Source: Hyphomicrobiaceae bacterium (GTDB taxonomy: Bacteria; Pseudomonadota; Alphaproteobacteria; Rhizobiales; Hyphomicrobiaceae). From it: 64,000 nucleotides of DNA. Position numbers and translations under genes: made by a program. Positions 4,635 to 36,083 of the stretch are shown piece after piece (positions within the stretch are counted from its first letter, which is position 1; each line of letters begins with the position of its first letter). The stretch spans positions 94,726 to 158,725 of the forward strand of contig JAWKWA010000008.1 of assembly GCA_041397765.1 (NCBI GenBank), given 5' to 3'. Under the pieces are notes generated by a model. The model had not been told where the DNA came from. It did not search any database and was given only the letters and a program-made list of their open reading frames with translations.

Positions 4635-4651
4635 GCAGGGAGCATCGGGCA

Positions 4652-6412
4652 ATGAGCACCAAGAGCGCCGGGCCGGATGACGCCGGGGCGAAGCGGCCGG
4701 GAACCGTCGATCCCTTCACCATGGTGGTGCTGCGTCGCCGCATGGAGGCGATCATCCGCGAGATGGTCAATGCGCTCCTGAAGTCCGGCCGCTCCGGCGT
4801 GCTCAACACGGCGATGGACTTTTCCTGCTCCCTGACCGATGCGCGTTTCCAGTCGGTGAGCGTTGCACTCGGGCTGCCGGTGCATGTCGGCGCCATCGAC
4901 CTCATTCCGCGCAAGGTCGCCGAGAAGCATGGTTCGACCCTCGCCCCCGGCGATTGCTTCGCCAACAACAGCGGCTACCACGGCAACACGCATTGCGCCG
5001 ATTTCACGCTATGCGTGCCGGTGTTCTACGAGGGTCGCGTCGTTTTCTATACCATCGCCCGCGCGCATCTGGGCGACATGGGCTTTCCGATACCCTCCAC
5101 CTACAACCCGGCCGCCCGCGACGTCTATGAGGAAGGCCTGATGCTGCCCTGCATCCGCGTCCAGCGGGATGGCCGCGACATCGAGGACGTGATCGACATC
5201 CTGAAGGCGAACATCCGTGCGCCCGAGCAGTTCTATGGCGACTATCTCGCCTGTCTCGCCGCGGTGCGCACCGGCGAGAAGCGCCTGAAGGAGTTGTGCG
5301 CCCGCTTCGGCACCGATCTCGTCGAGCGCTTCATCGACGAGTATCAGGACTACGCCGAGCTGATGGCCAAGGATGCCATTTCGCGTCTCCCCAAGGGCCG
5401 CGTGACGCGATCGGTGCGCTACGATTCGGAGCTTGCGCAATATCCCGACGGCATTCCCGTGACGGCGACGCTCGATGTCGATCCTGACGCCGGCCGCGTC
5501 GTCATCGACCTGACGGAGAACATCGACAATCTGCCGCTTGGCATCAACATGACCGAGAGCACCGTGCTCGCCTGCTGCCGCATGGGCACGCTCAACGTGC
5601 TTGGTCCCGACGTGCCGCGCTCGGCCGGTGCATTCCGCCGCATCGAGGTGAGGATGCGCGACGGCTCGGCGATCGGCCGGCCGGTCTTTCCCGCCGCAAC
5701 CTCGGCCGCCACCACCAATCTCTGCCATCTGCTCGCCTCGCACATCCAGGCCCTCTATGCCGATCTCGTCGATGGTCTCGGCTCCGCCTACGGCTCCGTC
5801 GGCCTGCCGGGCTCCTGCCCCGTCGTCAGCGGCCGCGACCCGCGACGCGGCAATCGCCCCTTCGTCAACCAGATCATCATGGGCTACTGGGGCGGCCCGG
5901 CCGTCGCCGGTCACGACGGCTGGCTGACCTACGGCAGCGCCGCCTCGCAGGGCATTCTCTGGCAGTCGAGCGTCGAGATCGTCGAGCAGCAGCAGCCGAT
6001 CCTGATCGAGGAGCTGTCGATCCGGGAGGATTCGGGTGGCGCCGGCGCCAGCCAGGGCGGCCCGGGCTCGCGTGTCGTCTTCCGCCCGCGCTTCGGCCCC
6101 GTGCGTTTCGCGATCAACGCCGCCGCGCACGACAATCCGCCCGAAGGCATGCGCGGCGGTCTGCCGGGAGCGCCGACGCGCATCAGCCGCATCGCCGCCG
6201 ACGGCACCCGCACCGATCTCGGCATCACCATCGACGTCACGCTCGGTCCGGGCGAGCGGCTGCTGTCGGAAGCCTGCGGCGGCGGCGGCTATGGCACACC
6301 GGCGGAGCGCCCCGCCGATCGCATCGCCGCCGACATCGCCGATGGCGTCCTGACGCCCGCACATGCCGCCAAGGTCTATCCCCGGCAGGCCCGTGAGGGG
6401 AGCGGTCGCTGA
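4652..6412 (+). CDS. hydantoinase B/oxoprolinase family protein (HyuB-like, ATP-dependent amidohydrolase beta subunit)
   Basis: 586 aa. The N-terminus DPFTMVVLRRRMEAIIREMVNALLKSGRSGVLNTAMDFSCSL..GYHGNTHCADF is characteristic of Hydantoinase_B. RBS gggag upstream. Confidence 0.85.
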   Translation: MSTKSAGPDDAGAKRPGTVDPFTMVVLRRRMEAIIREMVNALLKSGRSGVLNTAMDFSCSLTDARFQSVSVALGLPVHVGAIDLIPRKVAEKHGSTLAPGDCFANNSGYHGNTHCADFTLCVPVFYEGRVVFYTIARAHLGDMGFPIPSTYNPAARDVYEEGLMLPCIRVQRDGRDIEDVIDILKANIRAPEQFYGDYLACLAAVRTGEKRLKELCARFGTDLVERFIDEYQDYAELMAKDAISRLPKGRVTRSVRYDSELAQYPDGIPVTATLDVDPDAGRVVIDLTENIDNLPLGINMTESTVLACCRMGTLNVLGPDVPRSAGAFRRIEVRMRDGSAIGRPVFPAATSAATTNLCHLLASHIQALYADLVDGLGSAYGSVGLPGSCPVVSGRDPRRGNRPFVNQIIMGYWGGPAVAGHDGWLTYGSAASQGILWQSSVEIVEQQQPILIEELSIREDSGGAGASQGGPGSRVVFRPRFGPVRFAINAAAHDNPPEGMRGGLPGAPTRISRIAADGTRTDLGITIDVTLGPGERLLSEACGGGGYGTPAERPADRIAADIADGVLTPAHAAKVYPRQAREGSGR

Positions 6413-8508
6413 TGCACGAGCGAGCGGACATTGCCATCGACGTCGGCGGCACCTTCACCGATCTGGTGCTGCGTCTCGCCTCCGGCGAGATCCGCGCCTA
6501 CAAGTCGCCGACGACCACCGGCCGCATCATCGACGGGGTCTTCGACGGCCTCGCCCAGATCGCCGAGGACCTTGGCATCCCGCGCGACCGGCTGATCGCA
6601 GGGCTTGGCCGTTTCGCCTTCGGCACCACCGCCGCGACCAATGCCATTCTCGAGGGCAAGGCGGCGGCGACCGGCCTCATCGTCACCAGGGGATTCCGCG
6701 AGACCCTCCTGGTGCGCGAGGGCGGCAAGGCCGACACCTACAACATGTATCTCGACTATCCCGCGCCCTACATTCCCCGCGCGCTGACCCTCGAGGTCGA
6801 CGAGCGCGTCAACGCCGAGGGCGGCATCGAGCGGCCGCTCGAAGAGCAGAGCGTCGTCGCCGCCATCGACGCCCTGCGCGCCGCCGGCGTCGAGGCCGTC
6901 GCCGTCTCGCTCCTGTGGTCGATCGCCAATCCGCTCCACGAGGAGCGCGTCGGCGCGATCTTTGCCCGGCACTGGCCGGAGATTCCCGTCAGCCTCGGCC
7001 ATCGCGTCAATCCTTGCGTGCGCGAGTATCGCCGCACCTCGGCCGTCGCGCTCGATGCCTCGCTGAAGCCGATCGTCGCGCGCAGCGTCGCCGATCTCGA
7101 GGAGCGGCTGGCAGCGAGCGGCTTTTGTGGCACGTTGACCTATGTCACCTCGTCCGGCGGCCAGACCTCTGCCGAAGACATCATGGCGCGCCCCGTTCAT
7201 CTCTGCTTTTCGGGTCCCGCCGCCGCACCAGAGGCGAGCCGCAGGTTTGCCGCGCTCGAGAACATCGACGGTGGCAACATCATCACCGTCGACATGGGCG
7301 GCACCAGCTTCGATGTCAGCATCGTCACCGACTGGCAGATTCCGCTCCACCGCGAGGGCAGCATCGCCGGTCACATCTTCGGCGTGCCCTCGGTCGAGAT
7401 CCACACCATCGGCGCCGGCGGTGGCTCGCTCGCGCGTGTCGACCGCGGCGGCTTCATCCACACCGGCCCCGAGAGTGCAGGCTCCCTCCCCGGTCCCGCC
7501 TGCTATGGCCGTGGCGGCACGCGCGCGACGGTGACGGACGCCAATCTGGTGCTCGGCATGCTCGATCCCGAGCGCTTCGCCGCCGGCCGCATGACGCTCG
7601 ACGCGGCCGCGGCGCGTGACGCGGTCGAGCGGGATGTCGCCCGTCCGCTCGGTCTGGTGCTTGGCGAGGCCGCCAGCCTCGTCGCGGTGAGTTGCGAGCA
7701 GAACATGGTCGGCGCCATCGCCGATCTGACGGTCAAGCGTGGCATCGACCCGCGCGACTATCTGATGGTCGCTGGTGGCGCCGCCGCCGCGCTCCACGCC
7801 GTCGCCATCGCCCGCGAGCTCGGGATCCGCCGCATCCTCGTGCCGCGCTTCGCCGGCGTCATGAGCGCCTTCGGCATCCTGACGGGCGATGTCGCCTTCA
7901 CCTTCGGACGCGCGTTGTTCGCCTCCTCGGCGACTTTCGACCATGCGGCCGTCAATGGCGTGCTCGAGGCCCTCGAGGCCGAGGGTAACGACTATCTCGA
8001 CCGCATGGGCTTTGCCGATCCGGCCTTGCGCAGTCTCGTCTTCTCGGCGGAAGCGCGCTATGCGGGCCAGGTCTGGCAGCTCACCGTGCCTCTGCCCTCG
8101 CCTCGCATCCCCGACGCCACCGCGCTTGCCGCACTCGTCGAGGCATTCCACCGTCAGCACGAGCTGCAATACGCGGTAAGGAGCGCGCTCGACGCCGTCG
8201 AGTTCACCGAATGGAGCCTGAAGGCCGTCGGCCGCCTGCCCGACGTGTCGCTCGCCGAGCGGAACATGGAGCGCGGCGCCGTCACGCCGTCGCGCCGGCG
8301 CATGGCCCGCTTTCCGTCATCGCCCGAGCCGATCGACACGCCGGTCTACGAGATCGCGGACCTGCCGGTCGGCGTCACGATCGCCGGGCCGGCGCTCGTC
8401 GAGGATCGCCTGACCACCATCGTCGTCCCGCCCGGATCGCGCGCGTCGGTGACCCGCTACGGAAACATCCTGATCGACATCGCCAGCCCCGAGGGAGGCG
8501 TCACATGA
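6412..8508 (+). CDS. hydantoinase A/oxoprolinase family protein (HyuA-like alpha subunit)
   Basis: 698 aa. N-terminal IAIDVGGTFTDLV sugar-kinase-like fold and ...TVDMGGTSFDVS... The ATG overlaps the HyuB stop by 1 nt. Confidence 0.85.
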   Translation: MHERADIAIDVGGTFTDLVLRLASGEIRAYKSPTTTGRIIDGVFDGLAQIAEDLGIPRDRLIAGLGRFAFGTTAATNAILEGKAAATGLIVTRGFRETLLVREGGKADTYNMYLDYPAPYIPRALTLEVDERVNAEGGIERPLEEQSVVAAIDALRAAGVEAVAVSLLWSIANPLHEERVGAIFARHWPEIPVSLGHRVNPCVREYRRTSAVALDASLKPIVARSVADLEERLAASGFCGTLTYVTSSGGQTSAEDIMARPVHLCFSGPAAAPEASRRFAALENIDGGNIITVDMGGTSFDVSIVTDWQIPLHREGSIAGHIFGVPSVEIHTIGAGGGSLARVDRGGFIHTGPESAGSLPGPACYGRGGTRATVTDANLVLGMLDPERFAAGRMTLDAAAARDAVERDVARPLGLVLGEAASLVAVSCEQNMVGAIADLTVKRGIDPRDYLMVAGGAAAALHAVAIARELGIRRILVPRFAGVMSAFGILTGDVAFTFGRALFASSATFDHAAVNGVLEALEAEGNDYLDRMGFADPALRSLVFSAEARYAGQVWQLTVPLPSPRIPDATALAALVEAFHRQHELQYAVRSALDAVEFTEWSLKAVGRLPDVSLAERNMERGAVTPSRRRMARFPSSPEPIDTPVYEIADLPVGVTIAGPALVEDRLTTIVVPPGSRASVTRYGNILIDIASPEGGVT

Positions 8509-9434
8509 GCTTGAGCGAGCCGCTCGTCTATCTGAACGGCGAGTTCGTCCCCGAGAGTGCCGCCAAGGTCAGCGTCTATGACCGCTGCTTCCTCTACGGC
8601 GACGGGGTGTTCGAGGGCATCGCCGTCTGGGAGCGCGCGCCGTTCCGCCTCGGGTCGCATCTCGACCGTCTGTCGCGCGGCCTGCGCTATCTGATGATCG
8701 ACGAGCCGCTCGACCATGACGGCTGGCGCGAGGTGATCCGCGAGCTGATCCGCCTGAACGACATGCAGGACGGCTATCTCCGCCTCCAGCTCAGCCGCGG
8801 CGAGGGCATGAGCTCGATCAAGTGGGAGAAGCGGCTGCTGCGCAAGGCGTCGCCCAATGTGACGATCATCCCGGTCGCCGGCTTTGCGCGCTACTACGCC
8901 GGCCTGCTCGACGAGAAGAACGAGCGCGGCCTGAAGGCGATCACCGTTCCGCGTCCGCGCATCGCCTCGCACGCCGTGCCGACCGGCATGAAGCACTGCA
9001 ACTACCTGGGCAGCGTGCTCGGTGCGATCGACGTGACCGGACGCGGCGCCGACATCGGCATTTCCGTCGATGCCGACGGCTTCGTCGCCGAGGGCATCGC
9101 CTACAACGTGTTCATCGTCGTCAACGGCCGCATCCTGACGCCACCGACGACGCGCGACATCCTGCCCGGCATCACCCGCGACGTCATCGTCGAGCTCGCC
9201 GAGGCGAACGGCATACCCGTCGCCGAGCGTGATTTCGACGCCTATACCATGGCCTCCGCCGACGAGGCGTTCATTTCATCGACGCTCGAGCTTGCCGTGC
9301 CCGTCGTCTCTCTCGATGGCCGTACCATCGGCGAAGGCCGTCCAGGACCCGTCGCGCGGCGCATGGGCGCGCTCCTGAAGGACGCCATGACGCGCGAGGC
9401 GGCCGACTTCCATGCAACCCGCCAGGCGGGCTGA
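8505..9434 (+). CDS. PLP fold-type IV aminotransferase (branched-chain / D-amino-acid / (R)-amine transaminase class)
   Basis: ATG 8505 overlaps the HyuA stop. Protein MSLSEPLVYLNGEFVPESAAKVSVYDRCFLYGDGVFEGI...NYL...GITRDVI... is typical of class IV aminotransferases. Confidence 0.8.
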   Translation: MSLSEPLVYLNGEFVPESAAKVSVYDRCFLYGDGVFEGIAVWERAPFRLGSHLDRLSRGLRYLMIDEPLDHDGWREVIRELIRLNDMQDGYLRLQLSRGEGMSSIKWEKRLLRKASPNVTIIPVAGFARYYAGLLDEKNERGLKAITVPRPRIASHAVPTGMKHCNYLGSVLGAIDVTGRGADIGISVDADGFVAEGIAYNVFIVVNGRILTPPTTRDILPGITRDVIVELAEANGIPVAERDFDAYTMASADEAFISSTLELAVPVVSLDGRTIGEGRPGPVARRMGALLKDAMTREAADFHATRQAG

Positions 9435-9452
9435 GCGGCCAGCCGCGACACG

Positions 9453-10235
9453 ATGAGGAGGACTTCCATGGAGAACTTTTCCGACCTGACCGGCAAGACC
9501 ATCCTCGTCACGGGCGGCTCGCGTGGTATCGGCGAGGGCATCGTCCGCGGCCTCGTCAGGCAGGGCGCCCATGTCGTGCTCAACTATTCGACGAGCGGCA
9601 AGAGCGCCGAGGCGATCGCCGACGAGCTCGGCCGCGATCGTTGTCTTCCCGTCCATGCCGATCTGGCGAAGCTCGAGGATGTCGAGCGCTTGTGGAAGGA
9701 CGCCGTCGCCTGGCGCGGCCGCATCGACGTTCTCGTCAACAACGCCGCCGTCAGGAAGCCGATTGCCATCGACGCGCCGGCCGAGGCCTGGGACGAGCAT
9801 TGGATGACCGCCTTCCGCATCAATCTGCTGGCGACCGCGCATCTGTGTCGCCTCGCCATCGGCCATTATCGCCAGACGGGTGGCGGCTCGATCATCGGCA
9901 TCACGGCACGCATCGCGGTGCGCGGCGATCGCACCAACTTCTTCCACGATGGTGCCATGAAGGGCGGCATGAACTCGCTGCTCCGCGGCATCGCGCGTTT
10001 CCATGCCAAGGAGAACATCGACACCTATCTCGTTTGCGTCGGCGTGGTCGAGACCGAGCAGGCGCGCGACATGGTCGACATCTACGGCCGGGACGAGATG
10101 CTGCGCGAGATCCCGGCCGGCCGCTTCGGCACGCCCGCCGAGGTCGCCGATACGGTGGTGCTGTGCGCCGGCGGACGCATGAAATACGCGACCGGCTGCA
10201 CCATCGATCTCGTCGGCGCGTCCTTTCTGCATTGA
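9453..10235 (+). CDS. short-chain dehydrogenase/reductase (SDR)
   Basis: Rossmann motif TGGSRGIGEGI with NNAA, and a YxxxK region. RBS gaggagga 8 nt upstream. Confidence 0.85.
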   Translation: MRRTSMENFSDLTGKTILVTGGSRGIGEGIVRGLVRQGAHVVLNYSTSGKSAEAIADELGRDRCLPVHADLAKLEDVERLWKDAVAWRGRIDVLVNNAAVRKPIAIDAPAEAWDEHWMTAFRINLLATAHLCRLAIGHYRQTGGGSIIGITARIAVRGDRTNFFHDGAMKGGMNSLLRGIARFHAKENIDTYLVCVGVVETEQARDMVDIYGRDEMLREIPAGRFGTPAEVADTVVLCAGGRMKYATGCTIDLVGASFLH

Positions 10236-10267
10236 GCTGGCCGCGATTCTTGAGGGAGAACGGGAAC

Positions 10268-12526
10268 GTGACCAGTATCGGCAGATCGATCAAGCGCTTC
10301 GAGGACGAGCGACTGCTGCGCGGCGAGGGCCGGTTCGTCGAGTCGCTGATCCCCGGCGGCGCGCTCGAGGCGATGTTTCTCCGCTCGCCCTTCGCTCATG
10401 CCCGCATCGCACGGATCGACTGCACCGCCGCGCGCGCCATGCCCGGCGTGGTCGGGGTGCTGACGGGCCGCGATCTCGTCGACGCCGGTGCCGGGCCGCT
10501 GAAATGCCGCCGCACCATCCCGAGCATCGACGGCACCCCGTTCCACGAGCCGGTCCGCCATGCGCTCGCCCTCGAGACTGTGCGCTTCGTCGGCGAGGCG
10601 GTGGCCCTTGTCATCGCCGAAAGTCGCGCGGCGGCACTCGATGCCCTCGACATGATCGAGGTGGACTACGACCCGCTGCCGCTCGTGGTCGATCCGCTGA
10701 AATCGACCGAGATCGCCTTCACATGGGCGCAAGGCGACCGTGACGCCACCGACGCCGTCTTCCGCACGGCGCCGCTCGTCACCAGCTTTTCCGGCACCAG
10801 CTCGCGCATGGCCGCCGTGCCGATCGAGCCGCGCTCGGCCATCGCCGAATACGATCCGGTGGCGGCACGCTATCGCCTGGTGACGCAGAGCCAGGGTGTG
10901 CACCTGTTGCGCGCCGCCTACGCGTCCTCGCTCGGCATCGCTCCCGAGGCACTGCATCTGCAGACATTCGATGTCGGCGGCAGCTTCGGCATGAAGCTGA
11001 TCCCGCATCCAGAGCCGATCGCGCTGCTGACGGCTGCAAGGCTCGTCGGCCGCACCCTGGCCTGGGTCTCGACGCGCTCGGAGGCCTTCCTTTCGGACAA
11101 CTACGCGCGCGACCAGACCGCGACCGCCGAGCTGGCGATGGATCGCGACGGCACCTTCCTTGCACTCAGGATCTCCAGCACCGGCAACATGGGAGCCTAT
11201 GCCTCCTCATCGGCCCCGGGCGTGATGGCGATCCACTTCGCCCGCACCGTCGGTCATGTCTACCGCATCCCCGTCCATCACGTTCATGTCACCTCGGTCT
11301 ACACCAATATGACGCCGACGGATGTCTTCCGTGGCGCCGGAAAGCCGGAATCGACGGTGCTGGTCGAGCGTCTCATCGACCGTGCCGCGTGCAGGCACGG
11401 CTTCGATCGCCTCGATCTCAGACGCCGCAATCTCGTGACGCCCGCCGACATGCCGCGCCGCACGCTGTCGGGCCACATGATCGACGGCGGCGACTTCCCG
11501 CGGACGCTCGATCATGCGCTGGTGAGGGCAGATTGGCGCGGCTTCGAGGCGAGGCGCGCCGAGACGCTGTCACGCGGCCGGCTGCGCGGCATCGGCGTCG
11601 GTCTCTACATGCACGTCACCAGCCACCCCGTCGTCGAGGAATGTCGCGTCCGCCTCCTCGGCGATGGCACATTCGAGGCGACGATGGGTGCGCAAGGGAT
11701 CGGCCAGGGGCACGAGACCACATTTTCCCAGCTACTCGGCGACACGCTGAAGGTCGAGCCGGACGCCATCCGCATCGTCCAGGGCGACAGCGCCGTGCTT
11801 CCCCCCGTCGGCGCCGCGACCGGTGGCTCGGGCTCGATCCAGGTTACGGGCCTCACACTTCTGAAGGCGGCACGCCTTCTCATCGATCGGCTGCGACCCG
11901 AGGCCGCCGAGATGCTCGAGGCCTCGCCCGCCGATCTCGAGCATGCGACCGGCGGTTTCCGCATCAAGGGCACCGATCGCGCCGTCGGCTTCGCAGCCAT
12001 CGCCGGCCGCATGGACGACGACGCGCGCGAGGACTGCGCGGGCGATGCGCATTTCGAGGGCGATGCCGCCACCTGCCCGAACGGTGCCTACATCGCCGAG
12101 GTCGAGGTCGATCCGGCGACCGGCGAGGTCGAGATCCTGCGCTTCTCCGGCGCCGACGATGTCGGCCGGCGGCTCAACCCGATGATCGTCGATGGCCAGC
12201 TCCATGGCGGCATCGCCCAGGGTATCGGCCAGGCCATGCTCGAGCGCGTCGTCTACGACGAGGAGAGCGGACAGCTCCTCTCCGGCAGCCTCATGGACTA
12301 CGCGCTGCCGCTCGCCAGCGACTTGCCGAGCTTCGAGCTGGTCGCAGCCGATTGCCCCTCCTCGCAGAACGAGCTCGGCATGAAGGGCGCCGGCGAGTGC
12401 GGCACGATCGGCGCGCCCGGCGCGCTTCTCAACGCCATAGCCGACGCGATCGGCACCGACGAGTTCGACATGCCGGCGACGACCGAGCGGGTCTGGCGCG
12501 CGATACGCCTGAAACGGGGAGACTGA
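10268..12526 (+). CDS. molybdopterin-dependent hydroxylase large subunit (xanthine dehydrogenase/CoxL family, form II-like) without adjacent Fe-S or FAD subunits
   Basis: GTG start 10268 within track ORF 9641..12526. N-terminus SIGRSIKRFEDERLLRGEGRFVESL is a classic XDH/CoxL large-subunit start. VFRGAGKPE motif present. About 752 aa. Confidence 0.8.
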   Translation: MTSIGRSIKRFEDERLLRGEGRFVESLIPGGALEAMFLRSPFAHARIARIDCTAARAMPGVVGVLTGRDLVDAGAGPLKCRRTIPSIDGTPFHEPVRHALALETVRFVGEAVALVIAESRAAALDALDMIEVDYDPLPLVVDPLKSTEIAFTWAQGDRDATDAVFRTAPLVTSFSGTSSRMAAVPIEPRSAIAEYDPVAARYRLVTQSQGVHLLRAAYASSLGIAPEALHLQTFDVGGSFGMKLIPHPEPIALLTAARLVGRTLAWVSTRSEAFLSDNYARDQTATAELAMDRDGTFLALRISSTGNMGAYASSSAPGVMAIHFARTVGHVYRIPVHHVHVTSVYTNMTPTDVFRGAGKPESTVLVERLIDRAACRHGFDRLDLRRRNLVTPADMPRRTLSGHMIDGGDFPRTLDHALVRADWRGFEARRAETLSRGRLRGIGVGLYMHVTSHPVVEECRVRLLGDGTFEATMGAQGIGQGHETTFSQLLGDTLKVEPDAIRIVQGDSAVLPPVGAATGGSGSIQVTGLTLLKAARLLIDRLRPEAAEMLEASPADLEHATGGFRIKGTDRAVGFAAIAGRMDDDAREDCAGDAHFEGDAATCPNGAYIAEVEVDPATGEVEILRFSGADDVGRRLNPMIVDGQLHGGIAQGIGQAMLERVVYDEESGQLLSGSLMDYALPLASDLPSFELVAADCPSSQNELGMKGAGECGTIGAPGALLNAIADAIGTDEFDMPATTERVWRAIRLKRGD

Positions 12527-12528: not shown

Positions 12529-14892
12529 ATGGCCGACGAGCTTCCGCGCAACGCCGATGTGGTCGTGATCGGTGGTGGCATTGCCGGGTTGATGGCGCTC
12601 TACAATCTGGCGCGGCTCGGTGTCACCGACACGGTACTGGTCGAGCGACGCCAGCTCGCCTGCGGCACGACATGGCATTCCGTCGGCAGCGTCGGCCAGG
12701 TGCGCGGCTCGCGCCTCTTGACCGTGCTGTCCGGTGCGACAGCCGCGCTCTTGCCCGAGATCGAGCGCGAGACCGGCATGTCGACCGGCTACAAGCGCTA
12801 CGGCTCGATCGGCCTCGCATTGACCGAGGAGCGGCTGGAGGAGTTCCGCCGCACCGTTTCGTCGGCCTCGGCATGGGGGCACGAGGCGGCGATCCTCTCG
12901 CCCGGCGAGATCAAGGAGCGCTATCCCGCCGTCGAAGTCGACGACGTCAAGGGCGGTCTCTTTCTTCCAGGCGACGGCCGCACCAATCCGATCGATACGG
13001 TCCAGGCGCTCGCCAGGGCCTGCCGCCAGCGCGGCGCGCGCATCTTCGAGGAGACGCGCGTCGACGACATCGTGGTGGAGGATGGGCTCGTTCGGGGTGT
13101 TCGCACCTCGCGGGGCGACATCCTGGCCGAAAAGGTGCTGCTCTGTGCCGGCATGTGGAGCCGCGACATCGCCGAGCGCATCGGCGTCACCATTCCGCTG
13201 CTCGCCGCCGAGCATTTCTACGCCGTCACCGAGCCGATCGAGGGGCTCGCGCGCGACACGCCCATGGTACGTGTTCCCGACGAGCGCACCTACTACAAGG
13301 AGGATGCCGGCAAGCTGCTGTTCGGTTGCCTCGAGGAGGTCGCCAAGCCCTGGGGCATGGCCGGCATTCCCGAGAGCTTCTGCTTCGATAGCCTGCCGCC
13401 CGACCTCGATCATTTCGCACCGATCCTCGAGACTGCCATGGAACGCATGCCGCTCCTGAAGGAGGTTGGCATCAAGCTGTTCTTCAACGGTCCCGAGAGC
13501 TTCACGCCGGACGGCAACTTCCACATCGGCGAGACCGCCGAGGTGCGCAATCTCTTCGTCTCGTGCGGTTTCAATACCATCGGCGTCATGGCCTCGGGCG
13601 GCATCGGCCGCATGGCCGCCGAGCTGATCGTCGACGGCCGCGCCAGCGTCGATATGACCGGCACCGATGTTCGGCGCGCCGCGCGCTTCGAGACGAACGT
13701 CTCCTACCTCACCGAGCGGATCACCGAGGGCCTCGGCAAGCTCTACGGCCTGCAATGTCCCGACCAGACCTATACCTCCGCGCGCGGCGTCCGGCGCAGC
13801 CCGCTGCACGCCGATCACATTGCCGCCGGTGCGGTGATGGAGCATGTCGCCGGTTTCGAGCGGCCGGCCCTGTTCGCCCCGGCCGGGGCCGCCGCCCTCC
13901 ACGTGCCGACCTATTTCCGCCCGGCCTCGCACGACTGGGTGGCGGCTGAACAGCCCGCCGCACGCGAGAGGCCGCCGCCGTCTTCGACCAGTCGGCCCTC
14001 GCGAAGCTGACGCTGGCCGGCCGCGATGCCGCCGCTGCCCTGGCTGAAATCGTGACCCGCATGCCGGAGCACGGCGCGCCGTCCGTTCGCAGCCTGATCC
14101 TCGATGGCGCCGGTTGTCGAGGCGATCGTCCAGGTCGTCCGCATTCCTGGCCGAATACCCTTCGTCATCGGCGCCCCCGGTGACGAGCGCCGGCTCCTCG
14201 CGCTTCTGTCGCGCCGTCTGCCGGAGGGGCTGCACGCCGTCGTTCTCGACGCCACCGCCGGTTATTGCCTCCTCGACATCTTCGGTCCCGACCGCTCCGA
14301 TGCCTTGCGGCGCGCCGGTCGCCGGCCCCGTGCGGGTGATGCGGACATGGCACCGCAGCTCGACCTTGGCCTCGGCCTGACGCGCGCCGTCGAGGGCGGC
14401 GAGCATGGCCTCGACGTCACGCGCCTGATCGTCGCCTCCGACATGGCCGCGCACATCTACGAGGCCGTGACGGCGGCCGCGGTCCGCCCGATCGGCAGCC
14501 ATGCCTTCCATGCGCTCCGTCTCGAGGCAGGCCGTCCCGCCTGGGGCTCGGAGATCGACCAGACGACCATGCCGGCCGACGCCGGGCTCTCCGAGGCCGC
14601 CGGCCTCAACCGCGCCGCCGATGCGGTGCCCGCGCTCTGCCGCATCGTGCTCGAGCGCGCCGACGAGCGCCTGATCGGTCGCGAGCCGATCCGCCGCGAC
14701 GGCGAGGTCATTGGCTCGGTGGTCTCCGGCGCCTTCGGCCATGGGATCGGCCGGCCCGTCGGCTTCGCCTTCGTCGCATCGGCCGCCGACCGGCCGCGTC
14801 CCGGCGCCGAGGACATCGCCGTCGATGTCGAGATCGCTGGCCGGCCGGGCCGTGCACGCCTCATGGCCCTGCCCGGCGAGGAGATGGCCTGA
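12529..14892 (+). pseudogene. dimethylglycine/sarcosine dehydrogenase-like FAD oxidoreductase fused to a GcvT folate-binding domain, interrupted by two compensating frame shifts (about 13967 and about 14100)
   Basis: Frame 1 from 12529 gives DVVVIGGGIAGL...HDWVAAEQPAARE. Frame 0 (13950-14100) gives AAAVFDQSALAKLTLAGRDAAAALAEIVTRMP...LILDGAG. Frame 1 again (14104-14892) gives VVEAIVQVVRIPGR...LRLEAGRP...GREPIRRDGEVIGSVVSG. All three pieces align colinearly to DMGDH (FAD domain then GcvT domain). The frame-1 reading hits TGA at 14008. Confidence 0.6.
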
Positions 14893-15070
14893 AGGCTGAA
14901 GGGAGGACTCCTCTCGCGCAAGACCTCGTCGTCCGATGTCGCGCCGGTGATGGACGCGACCACCCGTCGCTTTCGGACGGGCGCGAAGGCCCGAGGACGC
15001 GATATCGAGGTGCTGACGGCGCCAGTGCCGACGCCGCCACGCCCCCCGCCCGCGGTGACAGGGACCGACC

Positions 15071-15553
15071 ATGACCGAGCAGCCGCAGCGACCTTCGAGA
15101 TTTGCAGGGATCTCCAACCGGCGCCGTGCCGTCTATGCCTTTCTCGCATCCATCCTGATCGGCCCGCCCATTGGCGGCATCTCTGTGATGCTCGGGCTCG
15201 CCCTGGCGTCCCTCGTCTCCGGCGATGCCAATTCCGGCGAGAGCGCCCTCGGCTTTCTCGCCGCGATCCCTGTCGTCGCCATCTTCTCCTACATCGCCGG
15301 CGGCCTTCAAGCGTTGGTCTGCGGCCTCATTCTCGCCATCCCGGTCGCCCGCACGGGCCATGTCGGGCTTGGCTTGACCGCCGGCGTCGCCGGCTTCGTC
15401 GGCATGTTGCGTGGCGGCGCCGTCTTGTTCGCCGGCGAGACCATCGTCCCGGCCGGGTTGCTCTTCGTCGCGCCCGCTCTGGTATCGGCCATCGGCTGCC
15501 GCGCTTTCCTGCTCTGGCTCGGCATCCTGCGGCGCCAGCCCCGGCGGGAGTGA
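15071..15553 (+). CDS. hypothetical small integral membrane protein (4 predicted TM helices)
   Basis: 160 aa ORF with hydrophobic stretches (ILIGPPIGGISVMLGLALASLV..., AAIPVVAIFSYIAGGLQALVCGLILAI...). Weak RBS aggga. No recognisable family. Confidence 0.4.
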   Translation: MTEQPQRPSRFAGISNRRRAVYAFLASILIGPPIGGISVMLGLALASLVSGDANSGESALGFLAAIPVVAIFSYIAGGLQALVCGLILAIPVARTGHVGLGLTAGVAGFVGMLRGGAVLFAGETIVPAGLLFVAPALVSAIGCRAFLLWLGILRRQPRRE

Positions 15554-15634
15554 CGGCAGCCGGGCGGGTGGCAGCGACCGGCCAAATCAGCTAGACAGGG
15601 CGGGAACAAATCCGAAACGCTGCCGGGGCCGCGC

Positions 15635-16681
15635 ATGACCGACCGCCTCTTGTCCGCCAAGCGCAAGGAGGACGACGCCGTCGAGGCGTCGATCCGGCCC
15701 CAGTCGCTGTCGGACTTCACCGGCCAGCAGCAGGCCCGCGCCAATCTCCGCGTCTTTATCGAGGCCGCCAAGGGCCGCGGCGACGCGCTCGACCATGTGC
15801 TGTTCGCCGGCCCCCCGGGCCTCGGCAAGACGACGCTCGCCCAGATCATGGCACGCGAGCTGGGCGTCGGCTTCCGCATGACGTCGGGGCCCGTCATCGC
15901 CAAGGCCGGTGATCTCGCGGCCCTTCTCACCAATCTCGAGGAGCGCGACGTCCTCTTCATCGACGAGATCCACCGCCTCAACCCGGCGGTCGAGGAGATC
16001 CTCTATCCCGCCATGGAGGACTTCCAGCTCGACCTCATCATCGGCGAGGGGCCGGCCGCCCGCTCGGTCCGCATCGATCTGGCGAAGTTCACCCTCGTCG
16101 GCGCCACCACCCGCGCAGGTCTTTTGACGACGCCGTTGCGCGACCGCTTCGGCATCCCGATCCGGCTCAATTTCTACACCGTCGAGGAGCTCGAGCTGAT
16201 CGTCGCGCGCGGCGCCCGCGTGCTCGGCTGCGCCATGAGCCCCGACGGTGCCCGCGAGATCGCCCGCCGCTCGCGTGGCACGCCGCGCATCGCCGGCCGT
16301 CTGCTGCGCCGGGTCCGCGACTTCGCCGCCGTCGGCGGTGCCGCCGTGATCGACGCCCGCGTCGCCGACGAGGCGCTGCGCCAGCTCGAGGTCGACGGCG
16401 AGGGGCTCGACTCCCTCGACCACCGCTATCTGCGCTGCATCGCCGTCAACTACGAGGGCGGCCCGGTCGGCATCGAGACCATCGCCGCGGCCCTTTCGGA
16501 GCCGCGCGACGCGCTGGAGGAGATCGTCGAGCCCTATCTGCTGCAGCAGGGCTTCATCGGCCGCACCCCGCGCGGCCGCGTCGTCACCATGAAGGCCTAC
16601 CGCCATCTCGGCCTCGCCAGTCCCGCCCGCCGCCCCGATCAGGCCGGCCTCTTCGACGGCGGCGACGGCGGGGAGGGATGA
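15635..16681 (+). CDS. ruvB: Holliday junction branch migration helicase RuvB
   Basis: 348 aa. Walker [12 protein letters not shown] and DEIHRL are typical RuvB. Confidence 0.95.
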
Positions 16682-16703
16682 GGCGGCCGGCGCCGCCCAT
16701 CGT

Positions 16704-17010
16704 TCAAGGGGCGAGCCAGATCTCGACCTCTGTGCCGTTGGCCCTCAGGCGTCCCGTCTTCATGAAGCCGTGGCGCAGATAGAACTGCTCGGGACCATGC
16801 GCGCCGGGATTGCCGTCATGCCCGCGAAGGCGGGCACCCGGACCCAGCCGATCATGCGCGGCGACAAGGGCCTTCTGGATTCCCGCCTCCGCGGGAACGA
16901 CGGAGTGGCGGAGGTGAGCGGCAGAAGCTTCACTCGCCATCACCCGGCATCGTCCCGGGGTCAACCGCTCGGCGTCCCCTCGCGATCGTCCCAACCCGGC
17001 ATCGGACCGG
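16704..17010. repeat. cluster of REP-type hairpins between convergent ruvB and lepA, overlying a probable GNAT gene remnant
   Basis: Hairpins atgcccgc-gaag-gcgggcac (about 16817-16840) and ttcccgc-ctcc-gcgggaa (about 16880-16898), plus direct repeats acccggcatcg x2. The minus-strand ORF 16704..16994 ends ...FYLRHGFMKTGRLRANGTEVEIWLAP (GNAT-like C-terminus), but its upstream part is repeat-derived (VVPAEAGIQ...LRGHDGN). Confidence 0.5.
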
Positions 17011-17040
17011 ACGACAGCCGCAGCATTTCCCGGCCACCCC

Positions 17041-18855
17041 TCAGTTCTCGTCCATCTTCAGCGCCGCGATGAACGCCTCCTGCGGGATCTCGACCTTGCC
17101 GAACTCGCGCATCTTCTTCTTGCCGGCCTTCTGCTTGTCGAGCAGCTTGCGCTTGCGGGTGATGTCGCCGCCATAGCACTTGGCGAGCACGTCCTTGCGG
17201 AGCGCCCGGATGGTCTCGCGCGCGATCACCTTGGCGCCGATCGCTGCCTGCACCGGGATCTGGAAGAGGTGCGGCGGGATCAACTCCTTCAACTTCTCGC
17301 ACATCGAGCGGCCGCGCGCCTCGGCGCGGGAGCGGTGCACGATGATCGACAGCGCATCGACCGGCTCGGCATTGACGAGGATCGACATCTTGACGAGGTC
17401 GCCCTCCTCGTAGCCGATCACCTGATAGTCGAACGAGGCATAGCCCCGGCTCACCGACTTGAGGCGATCGTAGAAGTCGAACACCACCTCGTTGAGCGGC
17501 AGCTCGTAGACCACCATCGCCCGGCTGCCGGCATAGGTGAGGTCCTTCTGCCGGCCGCGCCGGTCCTGGCAGAGCTTGAGGACCGAGCCGAGATACTCGT
17601 CCGGAACGAGGATCGTCGCCTTGATCCACGGCTCCTCGATATGGTCGATCCTGACGACGTCGGGCATGTCGGCCGGATTGTGCATCTCGACCATGGAGCC
17701 GTCGTTCATGTGCAGGTGATAGATGACCGACGGCGCCGTGGTGATGAGATCGAGGTCGAACTCGCGCTCCAGTCGCTCGGTGATGATCTCCAGGTGCAGC
17801 AGCCCGAGAAAGCCGCAGCGGAAGCCGAAGCCGAGCGCCGCCGAGGTCTCCATCTCGTAGGAGAAGCTCGCATCGTTGAGGCGCAGCTTGCCGACCGCCT
17901 CGCGCAGATCCTCGAAATCGGCGGCATCGACCGGGAAGAGCCCGCAGAACACCACCGGCTGCACCGGCTTGAAGCCCGCGAGCGGCGCATCGCAGGGTGC
18001 CCGGTCCTCCGTCACCGTGTCGCCGACCCGCGCATCGGCGACCTGCTTGATGCCGGCGGTGAGGAACCCGACCTCGCCGGGCCTCAGCTCGCCGAGCATC
18101 TGCTGCTTGGGCCGGAAAACGCCGACCCGCTCGACCGGATGGGCAGCTCCCGTCGACCAGAACTTGATCTTCTGGCCCTTCTTCAGGATGCCGTCGACGA
18201 TCCGGACGAGCACGATGACGCCGAGATAGGCATCGTACCAGCTGTCGATCAGCAGCGCCTTCAAGGGCTTTGCCGGATCGCCCTTGGGCGGCGGCAGGCG
18301 CGTCACGATGGCCTCGAGCACGTCGGCGACATTGAGCCCGGTCTTTGCCGAGATCTCGACCGCGTCGGAGGCATCGAGCCCGATCACGTCCTCGATCTGC
18401 CGCTTGACCCGCTCCGGCTCGGCCGCCGGCAGGTCGATCTTGTTCAAGACCGGCACGATCTCGAGATTGTGCTCGAGCGCGGTATAGACATTGGCGAGCG
18501 TCTGCGCCTCGACGCCCTGGCTGGCGTCGACCACCAGGATCGCCCCCTCGCAAGCCGCCAGCGACCGCGAGACCTCGTAGGCGAAATCGACATGGCCGGG
18601 CGTGTCCATCAGGTTGAGCTGATAGACGAGGCCGTCCCGGGCCTTGTAGTCGAGGCGCACGGTCTGCGCCTTGATGGTGATGCCGCGCTCGCGCTCGATC
18701 TCCATGGAATCGAGGATCTGCTCCTTCATCTCCCGGTCGCTGACGTTGCCGCAGAGCTGGATCAGCCTGTCGGCGAGCGTCGATTTCCCGTGGTCGATGT
18801 GAGCGATGATGGAGAAATTGCGGATGCGCTCGATGGGCGTTGTCGCGTCGGTCAT
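17041..18855 (-). CDS. lepA: translation elongation factor 4 (LepA)
   Basis: [31 protein letters not shown]... GTPase motifs. Start taken at MTDATT (cat at 18853-18855) within track ORF 17041..18873. Confidence 0.95.
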
Positions 18856-18956
18856 GGCGCGGACTTCTAGCATTGCCCCATGCGCCGAGAAAGAGGCGTC
18901 GGAGACAAGGACGCGCCAATCGGCAGGCGTGCGCCCGCGGGCGGTCGGGCTGGGGC

Positions 18957-19700
18957 GACGAAGTCAGGAGGCGGTGGGTCGTCGCCGTCTCGGCGCAAGC
19001 GCGCTGAGCCGCGACAGCCGCCCGTGCCGTTCTGACGCTCGAACCCATCCACACCGTCATTCCCGCGAAGGCGGGAATCCAGGGCATCTTTCCGTCTTGC
19101 GTGAGGCGCGGTGTCTGGGTGCCCGCCTTCGCGGGCAGGACGGGGAATGGTTGAGGCCGGCGAGCGCCAGGCGGCTGCGCGGCCGGTGGCTGACGGGGCG
19201 AGGACGGCGTCGGCTGCGGCGACGAAGTCGGGAGGCGGTGGGTCGTCGCCGTCTCGGCGCAATCGCGCTGAGCCGCGACAGCCGCCCGTGCCGTTCTGAC
19301 GCTCGAACCCTTCCACACCGTCATTCCCGCGAAGGCGGGAATCCAGGGCATCTTTCCGTCTTGCGTGAGGCGCGGTGTCTGGGTGCCCGCCTTCGCGGGC
19401 AGGACGGGGAATGGTTGAGGCCGGCGAGCGCCAGGCGGCTGCGCGGCCGGTGGCTGACGGGGCGAGGACGGCGTCGGTTGCGGCGACGAAGTCAGGAGGC
19501 GGTGGGTCGTCGCCGTCTCGGCGCAAGCGCGCTGAGCCGCGACAGCCGCCCGTGCCGTTCTGACGCTCGAACCCATCCACACCGTCATTCCCGCGAAGGC
19601 GGGAATCCAGGACATCTTTCCGTCTTGCGTGAGGCGCTGATCCGGGATGGTTGAGGCCGGCGAGCGCCAGGCGGCTGCGCGGCCGGTGGCAGGAGGACGA
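18957..19700. repeat. 264-bp tandem repeat, about 2.8 copies, each unit carrying two REP hairpins
   Basis: Unit starts at 18957, 19221 and 19485 (period exactly 264 nt). It begins gacgaagtcaggaggcggtgggtcgtcgccgtctcggcgca and contains cattcccgcgaaggcgggaatccag and tgcccgccttcgcgggca. A partial degenerate 4th copy follows to about 19700. Its translation gives the repeated peptide in track ORFs 18806..19654 and 18867..19733. Confidence 0.85.
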
Positions 19701-19799
19701 AGATGGTTGAAGGCGGCGGCGAGCTGACGCCACAGGCAGGCTGCGCGGTGCTGAGGACGGATGCGACAGGGCGAGGACGGCGTCGGCCGGGCCGGTCGT

Positions 19800-20516
19800 T
19801 CAGATGCGTACGAGCGCGACCGGCAGCGTGATCTCGTCGAGGGCCTTGAGATGGGGCGCGACTCTCGGATCGCTGCGCGGTACGCGGCCGGTCAGCCCGC
19901 CGAGCGCTGGATGGGCGTCCTGCCTGACCATCATCACCGGCGCCACGGCCGGATAGAGCTCGCGCCCGCGCGGATTGGCGAAGGTGAGCACGGCGCCACG
20001 GATCATCGTCTCGCCGGGCGGCGCGTGATAGGCGGTGATCATCCGCGCCGAACCGTTGTCGAGAGTGATGAAATGCAGGAAATGCGTGCCGGTCGGCACG
20101 CAGATCACGCCTCTCTGCTCATAGCCCGGATTGCCGTCCTCGAAGACGAGAGCCCGCGCCTCCCCGACCAGCGGATCGTAAGCGGATAGGCCGAGAGCGT
20201 GGCGGCATCCGTGAAGGACGGCCGGAGGCAGGTATAGGCCCCCTCGTAATAGGCGTAGATCTGCCGGTGATAGCCGCCGTAGCGGATGTCGGCGACCTCG
20301 ACGCTCGGGGCGGCCGGTTGGCTGACGGGCTCGCCGCCGAGCCCCAGCACCTCCTCGACGCGCGCGAGGGTCTTTGCCGTGAAGCTGCCCTTCAGGAGGC
20401 GGAACACGGTCGATCTCGCCGAGCAGGGCCTTGTCGGCCAGCATGCGCTGGGTCCATCCGCGCCGGTTCAGCTCGCGCTCGATACGTCGCACGACGTCGA
20501 CCGGTTGCGCGTCCAT
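19800..20516 (-). pseudogene. XRE-type HTH plus cupin domain transcriptional regulator, reading frame switches twice (about 20425 and about 20190)
   Basis: N-terminal piece from ATG at 20516 (MDAQPVDVVRRIERELNRRGWTQRMLADKALLGEIDRV) continues with FRLLKGSFTAKTLARVEEVLGLG... in the frame of track ORF 20105..20407. Diverse cupin-like sequence ...DPLVGEARALVFEDGNPGYEQRGVICVPTGTHFLHFITLDNGSARMITAYHAPPGE... then resumes in the first frame to the stop at 19800. The intervening frame-A text is Arg/Gly/Pro junk. Confidence 0.35.
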
Positions 20517-20788
20517 GGCTCCGCTTCTTCTGGTTCGGATCGGCTGTTCGTTGGGATCGGCCCGCCCGCCCGCTCTCGCCCCCGGGACCGTCGGGACCCG
20601 TCGATTTTCTCCAGTTTCCGCCAGACCCGTCAATCCCCCACGGATTCTGGCCGAACTTGGCCGGCTCCTGACCATGGCCAAAACCCCTGCAATTCCCAGA
20701 TGATGGATGTCGGCAGGCGATGAGCGAGACGTACAGCGCCGGCCGGCGAGGACGAGCCGAGACGATCTCGCCAGAGGGAGACACGTGA

Positions 20789-21139
20789 ATGACCCGCACC
20801 ATGACGACCACAGCCTTCGCCGCCCTTGCCCTGCTCGCCGCCGGTCTCGCCGGCACCCCCGAGGCTGCCGCCGCCAGCCCGAGCTTCTCCTGCAAGGGCC
20901 GCCTCACCGCCACCGAGCGGGCGATCTGCGACAGCCCGGTGCTGTCCAGCCTCGATCGGCAGATGGCGCGCGAATACGCCCACCGCATGGGCTCGTTCCG
21001 AACCTCAGAGGGCCGCTCGAGCCTCAAGGCCGCGCAGCGCGGCTGGCTCGCCACGCGCAATTCCTGCGGCGCCAGCAAGGGCTGCCTCAGGGCCGAGTAC
21101 GAGGATTGGATCTCCCAGCTCGTCGAATGGGACCTGTGA
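20789..21139 (+). CDS. secreted LprI-like (DUF1311 family) protein
   Basis: 116 aa. Signal peptide MTRTMTTTAFAALALLAAGLAGTPEAAAA. Motif pattern C..L...E..ICDSPVLSSLDRQM..Y...............RGWLATRNSC.....C....Y..WI as in lysozyme-inhibitor LprI N-domain proteins. Confidence 0.55.
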   Translation: MTRTMTTTAFAALALLAAGLAGTPEAAAASPSFSCKGRLTATERAICDSPVLSSLDRQMAREYAHRMGSFRTSEGRSSLKAAQRGWLATRNSCGASKGCLRAEYEDWISQLVEWDL

Positions 21140-21463
21140 GGTCGTCGAAGGCGGCCCCTTGCGGCCGCGATGGAATTGCCCGGTGACGCCCGCTCGGCGC
21201 CACCGGGCCCTGGATCGGCGGTGACTTGCGACGACGGGGACGTGGACCGCAGACACGGCCCCGCCGCCGAGGACACCGCCGAACGTGAAGCGCACGGGTG
21301 CCTCGCACACCCGTGCGCTTTCTCTTTTGAGTGGCGGGCGTCTCCTGGGCAAGGAATCGGAGCATGCCCGGCACGGTCGAACCGATTCCAACGCGGTCGG
21401 ACATGCTCTAAGAACCTCCGGGAGATTTCCGCGCGAGCTCTGCCGCGCCAGCCCCGGTGGCCA

Positions 21464-23139
21464 ATGACCCCTCTCGCAACCCCGCTCGACCGGATCGCCT
21501 CCGACTACGACGTCGTCGTCGTCGGCTCGGGCTATGGCGGCGGCGTCACGGCTTCGCGCCTCGCCCGTGCCGGCAAGCGCGTCCTCGTTCTCGAGCGCGG
21601 GCGGGAATACCCGACCGGCAGCTTTCCCTCGAGGCTGACCGAGCTGCGCGCCGAGCTGATGGTGACCGGCGGCCGCTTCGGGGCGGGCTCGCGGCCGGGC
21701 CTCTACGACTTCCGCTTCGGCGAGCACATCCACGTGCTGACGGGCTGCGGCCTCGGCGGCGGCTCGCTCGTCAATGCCGGCGTCGCGCTCCGCCCGGACG
21801 CCCGCGTCTTCGCCGATCCTTCTGCCTTTCCCGCCGAGATCGCCGGCGACGGCCTCATCGAGGAGGGGTTTGCCCGCGCCGCCGCCTGGATCCGCCCGGC
21901 CCGCGATCCCGAGGCCGGCACCACGACCAAGCTCGCCGCCTTCGCCAAGGCCGGCGAGGCGACCATCGGCCGGCCCGATCCCGCTCCCGTTGCCGTCAGC
22001 TTCGCCGATACCGTCAATCCGGCCGGCATCGGCCAGCCGGCCTGCACCCGCTGCGGCGACTGCTGCGGCGGCTGCAATGTCGGCGCCAAGAACACCGTCG
22101 CTCTCAGCTACCTGCCCGACGCGGTCGCCCACGGCGCCGTCATCGCGACGGAGGCCCGTGTCACCCGCCTCGAGCGCATCGGCAGCCGCTGGCACGTGCA
22201 TGTCGAGCCATTCCCCGCCGATCCGAAGGCCGCCGGCAGTTCCTCGGGCCCCATGGCCGTCGCCGCCGACATCGTCGTGCTCGCAGCGGGCACGCTCGGC
22301 TCCACCGAGATCCTGCTCCGGTCGCGCGCCGCTGGCCTTCCCCTGTCGGCCCGCCTCGGCGAAGGCTTCTCGGCGAACGGTGACATCATCGCCTTCGGCT
22401 ACAACGGCCGCGAGCGGGTCAATGCCGTCGGCATCGGCCATCCCCCGAGGGACGGTCTCGATCCGGTCGGCGCCAGCGTCACCGGCCAGATCGAGGTCGC
22501 CGATCCGGCCGATCTCGATCTCGGCATGTGCGTCCAGGAAGGCGTGCTGCCCTCCGCGCTCGGGCCGCTTCTGCCGGTTTCTTCGTGCCGGGCGGCCGTC
22601 TGCTCGGCGCCGCCCATGCCCTCATCAAGGGCGTCTATGACGGCCCGCTCGCCCGCACGCATACCTTCTTCGTCGTCAGCCACGACCGCGCGCGCGGCCG
22701 CATCGTGCTGAAGGGCGACAGGGCCGCCGTCGAATGGCCGGACGTCAATGACGAGCCGGTCTTCGCCCGGGTCGACGCCGCGCTCGAGCGGCTCTGCCGG
22801 GCGACCGGGGCGGCCTATGTGAAGAGCCCCTTGTCGGAAACCCTGATGGGCCGCCGCCCGGCGACTGCCCATCCATTGGGCGGCGCCCGCATGGCCACCG
22901 CTGCCCAGGCCGGCGTCGTCGATCACAAGGGCCGCGTCTTCGCCGGCGAGACCGGCGCGGTGGTTCATCCCGGCCTCTATGTCAGTGACGGATCGGTGCT
23001 GCCGCGTTCGCTCGGCGTCAATCCGCTCTTCACCATCACCGCCCTCACCGAGCGCGCCATGATCCACCTTGCCGAGGACTACCAGCTCCGCTTCGACACG
23101 GGACCACGTCCGCGCCGAACGGAGGCCGCCCATGGCTGA
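21464..23139 (+). pseudogene. GMC-family FAD oxidoreductase (cholesterol oxidase / choline dehydrogenase-like) with a -1 frame shift near 22575
   Basis: N-terminal part (frame of track ORF 21170..22711 from ATG 21464): DYDVVVVGSGYGGGVTASRLARAGKRVLVLERG... C-terminal part (track ORF 22528..23139): ...HPLGGARMATAAQAGVVDHKGRVFAGETGAVVHPGLYVSDGSVLPRSLGVNPLFTITALTERA. The junction lies at ctgccggtttcttc (ttt run). Confidence 0.65.
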
Positions 23140-23441
23140 GCGCAAGGCATCGGCCATGCCTGGCGAGGCCATCGAGACCTTGCACACCGTGCGCGACTGG
23201 TTCCGCTACGCCGTCACGCGCCTGGGCGAGGCCGGCGTCGCCTTCGGCCACGGCACCACCAACGCGGTCGACGAGGCGGCCTATCTGATCCTCGCGACCC
23301 TGAAGCTGCCGATCGACCGTCTCGATCCGTTCCTCGACGCCCGTCTCCTCGAAGCCGAGCGCCGCGCCCTCGCCGAGGTCATCGCCGCCCGCATCGCCAC
23401 CCGCAAGCCCGCCGCCTATCTGACCGGCGAGGCCTATATCG
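23132..23441 (+). pseudogene. prmB: 5' remnant (about 103 codons) of ribosomal protein L3 glutamine methyltransferase PrmB, truncated
   Basis: MAERKAS...AIETLHTVRDWFRYAVTRLGEAGVAFGHGTTNAVDEAAYLILATLKLPIDRLDPFLDARLLEAERRALAEVIAARIATRKPAAYLTGEAYI matches the PrmB N-domain. Downstream, none of the three frames continues the methyltransferase fold; the ORF runs into low-complexity junk to 23596. Confidence 0.55.
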
Positions 23442-23698
23442 GACCACACGCTCAGCCTCCCACCAGGAGTCAGTCCCGGAGAAGGCGCCGGCTCCGCCGG
23501 TCCTCGCGCATGGCCCCGCTGGCGCGCCCGGGGGGAGTGGGCCATGCGCGAGGCCTCGGCTCCGGGAGTCAGCGCCACCCATGTCCCCTGGCCTGATCGC
23601 CACACCCCCTCGCCCCGATTGCGCGCCGGCCCGATCGACTGCCCAAGCCGGCGCCAGGTCCTGTTGCGCTCTGGGGCGCCCTCTCCCCACCATGGCCC

Positions 23699-24109: not shown

Positions 24110-24146
24110 TACCGCCTCGCGAAACCTCTGACCTTCGCGAGGCGGT

Positions 24147-36079: not shown

Positions 36080-36083
36080 GGGC

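Follow-up and report, generated by a model that had tools for sequence, protein, structure and literature searches.

A gene of the dimethylglycine dehydrogenase (DMGDH)/sarcosine dehydrogenase (SARDH) type, at positions 12529–14892 (+) of a 64,000-nt stretch from a Hyphomicrobiaceae metagenome-assembled genome (MAG; assembly GCA_041397765.1, contig JAWKWA010000008.1, positions 94,726–158,725; the whole stretch is hereafter called the window), has a broken reading frame and is deposited as two separate genes. As judged from its domains and from colinear orthologues, the region is predicted to encode a single enzyme of ~787 aa in which an FAD-containing amine-oxidising domain is fused to a GcvT-type folate-binding domain, and its frame is disturbed by lesions confined to 215 nt that an intact allele of the same species does not carry. 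From these lesions, their positions and the intact allele we infer that the disruption is probably a matter of local consensus or assembly errors rather than of real mutation, the organism's gene being intact and the frame pattern being without biological function. Artefact or recent inactivation, the case belongs to an ordinary, known class, and neither would be new.

Reading frames, annotation and domains of the DMGDH-type gene

The gene starts with the ATG at 12529, directly 3' of the stop codon of a molybdenum-hydroxylase gene, and ends at 14892. By three-frame translation, frame A (codon starts at positions leaving a remainder of 1 on division by 3) is open from 12529 to 13968, where it ends in ...HDWVAAEQPAARE; beyond this point it continues for 13 nonsense residues (RPPPSSTSRPSRS, an out-of-frame translation) to a TGA at 14008–14010, and two additional frame A stops lie between that TGA and 14098. 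Frame C (remainder of 0) is open from 13950 and holds 48 conserved codons of the GcvT domain (AAAVFDQSALAKLTLAGRDAAAALAEIVTRMPEHGAPSVRSLILDGAG) at 13971–14114 (+), after which frame A picks up again as (MAP)VVEAIVQVV... and runs to the stop codon at 14890–14892. Furthermore, between 13970 and 14089 the base composition (GC) at the three codon positions switches to that of frame C, and a Viterbi pass based on codon usage, run along the whole window without prior input, recovered the same frame switch. An earlier note on this DNA, made from the sequence alone, had described a conserved segment out of frame and a termination of frame A at TGA 14008, and both are confirmed; the assignment of the 48 codons to frame C is additionally supported by profile matches, by orthologues and by the same-species allele described below.

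As written, the gene yields two open reading frames (ORFs), one of 493 aa at 12529–14010 (+) and one of 262 aa at 14104–14892 (+), the latter beginning with ATG 14104. On a contig of 207,592 bp, the first is deposited in identical form as MEZ5774764.1 ('MAG: FAD-dependent oxidoreductase [Hyphomicrobiaceae bacterium]'). The second is identical to MEZ5774765.1 ('glycine cleavage T C-terminal barrel domain-containing protein'), after which come MEZ5774766.1 and then MEZ5774767.1 (RuvB). In the GenBank annotation the two fragments are entered as ordinary, separate coding sequences (CDSs), which the annotation pipeline called because the first pair of insertions/deletions (indels) puts 48 codons out of frame and exposes the TGA.

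Homology was assessed with a frame-repaired test sequence of 786 aa, the 787-aa protein being the one obtained when the damaged patch is replaced by that of the same-species allele. In the repaired protein, Pfam profiles placed DAO (PF01266, 231 bits) at residues 10–366, FAO_M (PF16350, 47.6 bits) at 369–424, GCV_T (111.8 bits, profile positions 1–253 of 255) at 426–687 and GCV_T_C (38.4 bits) at 702–780. In the same profile search the 493-aa ORF as written had no GCV_T match and the 262-aa ORF alone, which lacks profile positions 1–104, matched GCV_T at positions 105–253 only (58.3 bits); a complete GCV_T together with GCV_T_C on one polypeptide was found only after frame repair, and also in the same-species allele. 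The out-of-frame block had been taken for the very start of the GcvT domain. It does belong to this domain, but the Pfam match already begins before the first shift, at residue 426.

Rat DMGDH (4pab) aligned colinearly with the repaired 786-aa protein, with no gap through the block (E-value 8.5e-79), as did human DMGDH (E-value ~1e-78), and the Arthrobacter dimethylglycine oxidase (DMGO) alignment had an E-value of 3.4e-70; the colinear structure alignment spans residues 7–751. Full-length orthologues (P0001, P0003, P0004 and P0006–P0009) measure 774–794 aa and are 54–67 % identical, and in the frame C block 15–26 of 48 residues are identical to each of nine full-length orthologues. Given the colinear 4pab alignment, the coverage of GCV_T and these orthologue identities, the match to the DMGDH family is far above chance, and the earlier proposal of one DMGDH/GcvT-type gene is upheld by the domains and the 4pab alignment of the repaired protein, which appears to be an ordinary member of the DMGDH/SARDH/DMGO architecture. 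Additionally, GTTWHSVG in the repaired protein aligns with GSTWHAAG in 4pab, W49 and H50 being invariant in a 12-sequence alignment; by this motif (G-[ST]-T-W-H), H50 is the predicted conserved counterpart of the histidine that bears the covalent FAD in DMGDH. None of the NCBIfam models, equivalogs included, reached its cut-off for this protein. In some sources the orthologues carry the tentative automatic label '4-methylaminobutanoate oxidase'.

An intact allele of the same species and the lesions in the window

Two contigs in ENA, found through 90 %-cluster mates of the small downstream gene, represent the same species: L162 (ERZ28655766, 2,219 bp), which is 98.4 % identical to window positions 13392–15610, and L163 (ERZ27309057, 1,200 bp), which is 98.3 % identical to 14411–15610. 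In L162 a single unbroken ORF of 499 codons leads from the first base of the contig to the same stop codon as in the window. Elsewhere no close relative was encountered: among species-representative genomes the nearest was only 67 % identical (L002, with an intact gene), the best JGI metagenome contigs reached at most 52 % identity, and a protein search limited to the patch region returned only the window's own two ORFs and no second same-species allele. L162 and L163, which are independent assemblies, both end exactly at 15610 (the start codon of ruvB lies 25 nt further on), and this shared end suggests either a strain-level structural difference or a branch in the assembly graph.

Compared with L162, the window carries five lesions in a patch at 13950–14164, namely a cluster of substitutions followed by 2-nt indels at four places, successively +2, −2, −2 and +2 (all given for the forward strand). 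Four substitutions at 13951–13955 (CAGCC in the window, TGCCT in L162) turn E-C-L-A into E-Q-P-A, the Cys being present in seven of nine orthologues. At 13966–13967 an insertion of two bases (GA/AG) shifts frame A to frame C (window GCGAGAGGCC, L162 GCGAGGCC), and once these 2 nt are removed, the distance from the W of HDW to the D of DQS is that of the orthologues. A 2-nt deletion with a T/C difference at 14114/14115 (window GGT--TGTC, L162 GGTGCCGTC) leads back to frame A at the cost of one residue (G-A-V-E in L162). A second compensated pair follows at 14144–14161, comprising a −2 with two substitutions at 14144–14148 and a +2 at 14160–14161; no stop occurs within it, and the window reads VRIPGRIPFVIG where L162 has VRIAPAEYLVIG and the orthologues VR[IL]APDxxLVIG. 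The intact states at the indel sites, as found in L162, are GAGGCC, GGTGCCGTC, CATCGCCCCGG and ACCTCG. The two shift sites named in the earlier note, cgcgagAGgcc and ggTTGTC, were thus correctly placed, and both of its compensating shifts are present; as an inventory, however, it fell short, since the 215 nt contain four or more 2-nt indels together with neighbouring substitutions, and the second pair and the substitution cluster had been missed.

The patch measures 215 nt in both window and L162, so that the net change in length is zero, and it contains 8–10 gap columns and seven substitutions, whilst the other ~2,000 aligned nt show only isolated single-nucleotide polymorphisms (SNPs) and no indel. 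Within the patch, window and L162 agree at all of the 143 nt that separate the first indel from the second, and the whole of 13968–14113 has 100 % DNA identity with this intact allele, in keeping with the observation that the out-of-frame block is undecayed. When the L162 patch is swapped into the window, a 787-aa protein without internal stop results. At every lesion L162 has the state of the orthologue consensus (the Cys; G-x-V-E; VR[IL]AP..LVIG), and it is thus the window that has the derived state; the comparison with orthologues that had been called for found nine orthologues, as well as L162, in a single frame throughout. Outside the patch the CDS differs from L162 by 10 SNPs, of which seven are at third positions and three change an amino acid, with no other indel and no stop. 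This preponderance of third-position changes (7/10) indicates a gene under purifying selection without other decay, and the relaxed selection or extra decay expected of a young pseudogene was not seen outside the patch. L162 lacks all five lesions, yet at 98.4 % identity it represents another strain, from another sample.

Damaged neighbours, contig quality and gene context

The Viterbi scan also picked out two other genes with frame damage, both within 9 kb of the DMGDH-like gene; all three lie between 13.9 and 22.6 kb. One encodes an XRE-family helix-turn-helix (HTH) regulator (19805–20516, −) and contains a compensated +1/−1 pair, which was checked against nine homologues: there is an extra A after GAG (~20414), and a run of four G at 20162–20165 where five are needed. 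The middle ~250 nt of this gene has the codon-position composition of another frame, the correct frame giving STVFRLLKGSFTAKTLARVEEVLGL...YPLTIRW, and the out-of-frame part includes the HTH recognition helix, which is scrambled. As written, the ORF stays open and includes an Arg-rich nonsense stretch of ~80 residues; once repaired, the protein aligns colinearly with the nine homologues at 53–61 % identity. The other is a split gene for a GMC oxidoreductase (21464–23139, +), with three T at 22578–22580 where four are needed, whose N-terminal part is MEZ5774773.1 (415 aa) and whose C-terminal GMC_oxred_C part is in another frame. An intact allele of this gene, MEZ5776673.1 (558 aa), is deposited on a 3.6-kb contig with an accession ~1,900 later; it reads LLPVFFVPGG at the junction, requiring TTTT against TTT in the window, and is identical to the window over the first 372 residues (to ...LLPV), with two amino-acid differences C-terminally. 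A separate intact allele in the same accession range suggests that a strain-duplicate contig is present in the bin. A further frameshift suspected at ~40063 proved to be a normal gene junction.

Along a total of 11.8 kb of aligned same-species contigs (L163–L168) no window-specific indel was found, and a globally noisy assembly is thereby ruled out. L166 (95.6 % identity) shows a +1/−1 gap pair, 4 nt apart, against window positions 25070–25074; as L167 covers the same place without a gap, this is a peculiarity of L166 and not of the window. Divergence from the same-species contigs is 1.2–4.4 % at 13–25 kb versus 0.2–0.7 % elsewhere (identities of 98.4, 96.9 and 95.6 % within 13392–25271, versus 99.3–99.8 % at 8135–10024, 32722–36884 and 59797–61261), so that the lesions fall where the window varies most between strains. 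The GC content of the patch (0.71–0.745) is no higher than that of neighbouring sequence, and GC drop-out was rejected as a cause. Between lepA and the XRE gene lies a non-coding tandem repeat (18948–19637) of 264 nt in 2.6 copies, the first two of which are 98 % identical; exact repetition at offset 264 extends over 166 nt at most, a weak hint at reads or read pairs longer than 150 nt. In translation this repeat has an IPAFAGMT-type motif, which we take to be typical of a common alphaproteobacterial repeat element.

The DMGDH-like gene is the last member of a long run of same-strand genes that occupies 113–12526 (+). Upstream of it stand, in order, a 521-aa ORF (113–1678), genes of the thiolase and methylmalonyl-CoA mutase families, hydantoinase B, hydantoinase A, a class IV aminotransferase, an SDR and the large subunit of a molybdopterin-dependent hydroxylase (the names are those given by NCBI to the exact products). 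This operon context is unlike betaine catabolism; the presence of hydantoinase, aminotransferase and Mo-hydroxylase genes suggests that the compound broken down may be N-methylated or a cyclic amide. The last five genes of the run are syntenic in L001 (ENA ERZ773282, NODE_1469, coverage 4.5), where hydantoinase A, the class IV aminotransferase, the SDR and the Mo-hydroxylase are kept upstream of an orthologue at 6001–7518. This orthologue (P0010) is 95 % identical to P0007 over residues 1–451, after which it ends as a homologue: from nt 7353 the homology is gone, the 505-aa protein has no GcvT domain, and truB follows on the other strand. Either the folate-binding domain has been lost here by a natural deletion, or the contig, with its low coverage, is chimeric.

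Origin of the lesions and comparison with known systems

The earlier note had framed the choice as one between sequencing error and very recent inactivation, and we agree that this is the correct dichotomy. It had also suggested that the terminal enzyme of the pathway may be non-functional; the balance of evidence is on the side of artefact, and if so the enzyme has not been lost. This leaning rests on the clustering of the lesions, on the intact allele at 98.4 % identity, on two more damaged genes nearby (with two lesions in short homopolymers), on separately assembled intact alleles, among them the deposited GMC allele, on the purifying-selection pattern of the SNPs and on the strain-mixed character of the region. 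Indels in short homopolymers and messy deletion–insertions are typical consensus errors, and the splitting of genes into adjacent ORFs by indel errors in the consensus of MAGs is a known annotation artefact. The cause would then be a local error of consensus or assembly in a strain-heterogeneous metagenome stretch, the zero net change in length being a moderate coincidence within each error cluster. Several observations pull the other way. The ~11.8 kb of comparable same-species sequence is free of indels, meaning that the contig is not globally error-prone, and the patch is not unusually GC-rich, so that a coverage drop-out is not indicated. If the assembly was of the Illumina-only de Bruijn type, 2-nt indels would normally reflect real molecules and would rarely be invented. 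L162, being from another sample and strain, shows an intact gene for the species and not for this strain. The lesions of the DMGDH-like gene are, moreover, pairwise compensated 2-nt deletion–insertions and not the single homopolymer indels usual for MAG artefacts, and chance within error clusters explains this pairing (+2/−2, −2/+2 and, in the XRE gene, +1/−1) only loosely.

Were the lesions real, the dominant strain's gene would have been inactivated very recently, by one clustered event or by several, so that no more than a 493-aa protein with the FAD domain, lacking a working folate-binding domain, could be made, and the XRE and GMC genes would likewise be young pseudogenes in a decaying, strain-variable segment. 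We regard this as rather unlikely, though it accommodates several of the data: the contig is not generally noisy, an intact GMC allele on a separate short contig is what a de Bruijn assembler puts out for a genuine second haplotype, the lack of further decay fits a very recent event, and the L001 orthologue implies that loss of the GcvT domain may be tolerated in the clade, although that contig, at 4.5× coverage, may be chimeric. Set against this, ordinary neutral decay cannot account for five lesions in a 215-nt patch when the remaining 2.1 kb of the gene has none, and three broken genes in 9 kb are unusual for an otherwise well-conserved genome of free-living type. The pairwise compensation also brings no selective gain. 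Between the two indels of the first pair, frame A still meets three stops; the compensation therefore cannot have been selected, and the 'partial restoration' that the earlier note had envisaged is not supported. The XRE gene, for its part, has a scrambled recognition helix. We know of no single mutational mechanism that yields four 2-nt indels with adjacent substitutions. Neither a quasi-palindrome nor a nearby template explains them: the AG insertion breaks a 9-nt inverted repeat which L162 has in perfect form, no template for the variant bases lies nearby, and a template-switch or quasi-palindrome origin was rejected. Gene conversion from a diverged paralogue was likewise ruled out, by the 143 nt between the first and second indels that are identical to L162. 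A more specific proposal, that one localised mutagenic episode (e.g. error-prone repair synthesis after recombination) in this ~10-kb strain-variable segment both introduced paired, length-conserving indels into at least two genes and broke three, strikes us as improbable; if it were true, the 493-aa FAD-domain product would work without the folate-binding domain, paralleling the L001 orthologue.

The perfect preservation of the out-of-frame block and the calling of both ORFs as CDSs are the only points that would speak for two ribosomal frameshifts or for a deliberately split two-subunit enzyme (493 aa + 262 aa), and we accord this next to no probability. No X XXY YYZ heptamer occurs in 13930–14000 or 14080–14140, nor is there a homopolymer at which transcription could slip; two shifts at unrelated sequences would be needed, −1/+2 for the first and +1/−2 for the second, and neither the nine orthologues nor the 98.4 %-identical L162 share the shift. 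As for a split enzyme, the 262-aa ORF, without GCV_T positions 1–104, cannot fold as a complete domain, and the 48 codons would be missing from both products. On these sequence grounds programmed recoding is excluded for practical purposes and a functional split enzyme is unlikely, this explanation being effectively refuted.

For users of the deposited data, MEZ5774764.1 and MEZ5774765.1 would best be treated as fragments of one enzyme and merged or flagged as frameshifted, and in pathway reconstruction for this MAG the last enzyme of the operon should not be scored as lost on the contig sequence alone. With at least three frame-damaged genes at 13.9–22.6 kb, proteins from this stretch are to be used with care; the XRE regulator would be deposited with its ~80 nonsense residues, since its ORF is open. 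Should the lesions prove real, the DMGDH-like gene would be an ordinary strain-level pseudogene.

In its domain order (DAO, FAO_M, GCV_T, GCV_T_C) the protein matches DMGDH, sarcosine dehydrogenase and dimethylglycine oxidase (4pab/4p9s/5l46, 1pj5); the characterised enzymes of this type are only ~30–35 % identical to it and, unlike them, the window gene as written has a broken reading frame. With programmed frameshifting (prfB, +1; dnaX, −1; transposases of the IS3 family) it shares the distribution of one protein over two frames, but it has no slippery sequence or conserved shift and would need two shifts of different kinds. Young frameshift pseudogenes resemble it in that an otherwise intact enzyme gene has a disrupted frame and a sister strain an intact allele; they typically carry one indel, usually in a simple repeat, rather than five clustered lesions with zero net length, and their neighbouring genes normally do not show the same pattern. 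Local consensus or assembly error, the reading we prefer, finds its counterpart in the indel artefacts of MAGs, in which adjacent same-strand ORFs jointly rebuild one protein, just as they do here; the likeness extends to the neighbouring genes with lesions in short homopolymers (G4 for G5, T3 for T4), to the intact allele in independent same-species assemblies and to the gathering of the lesions in a strain-variable stretch.

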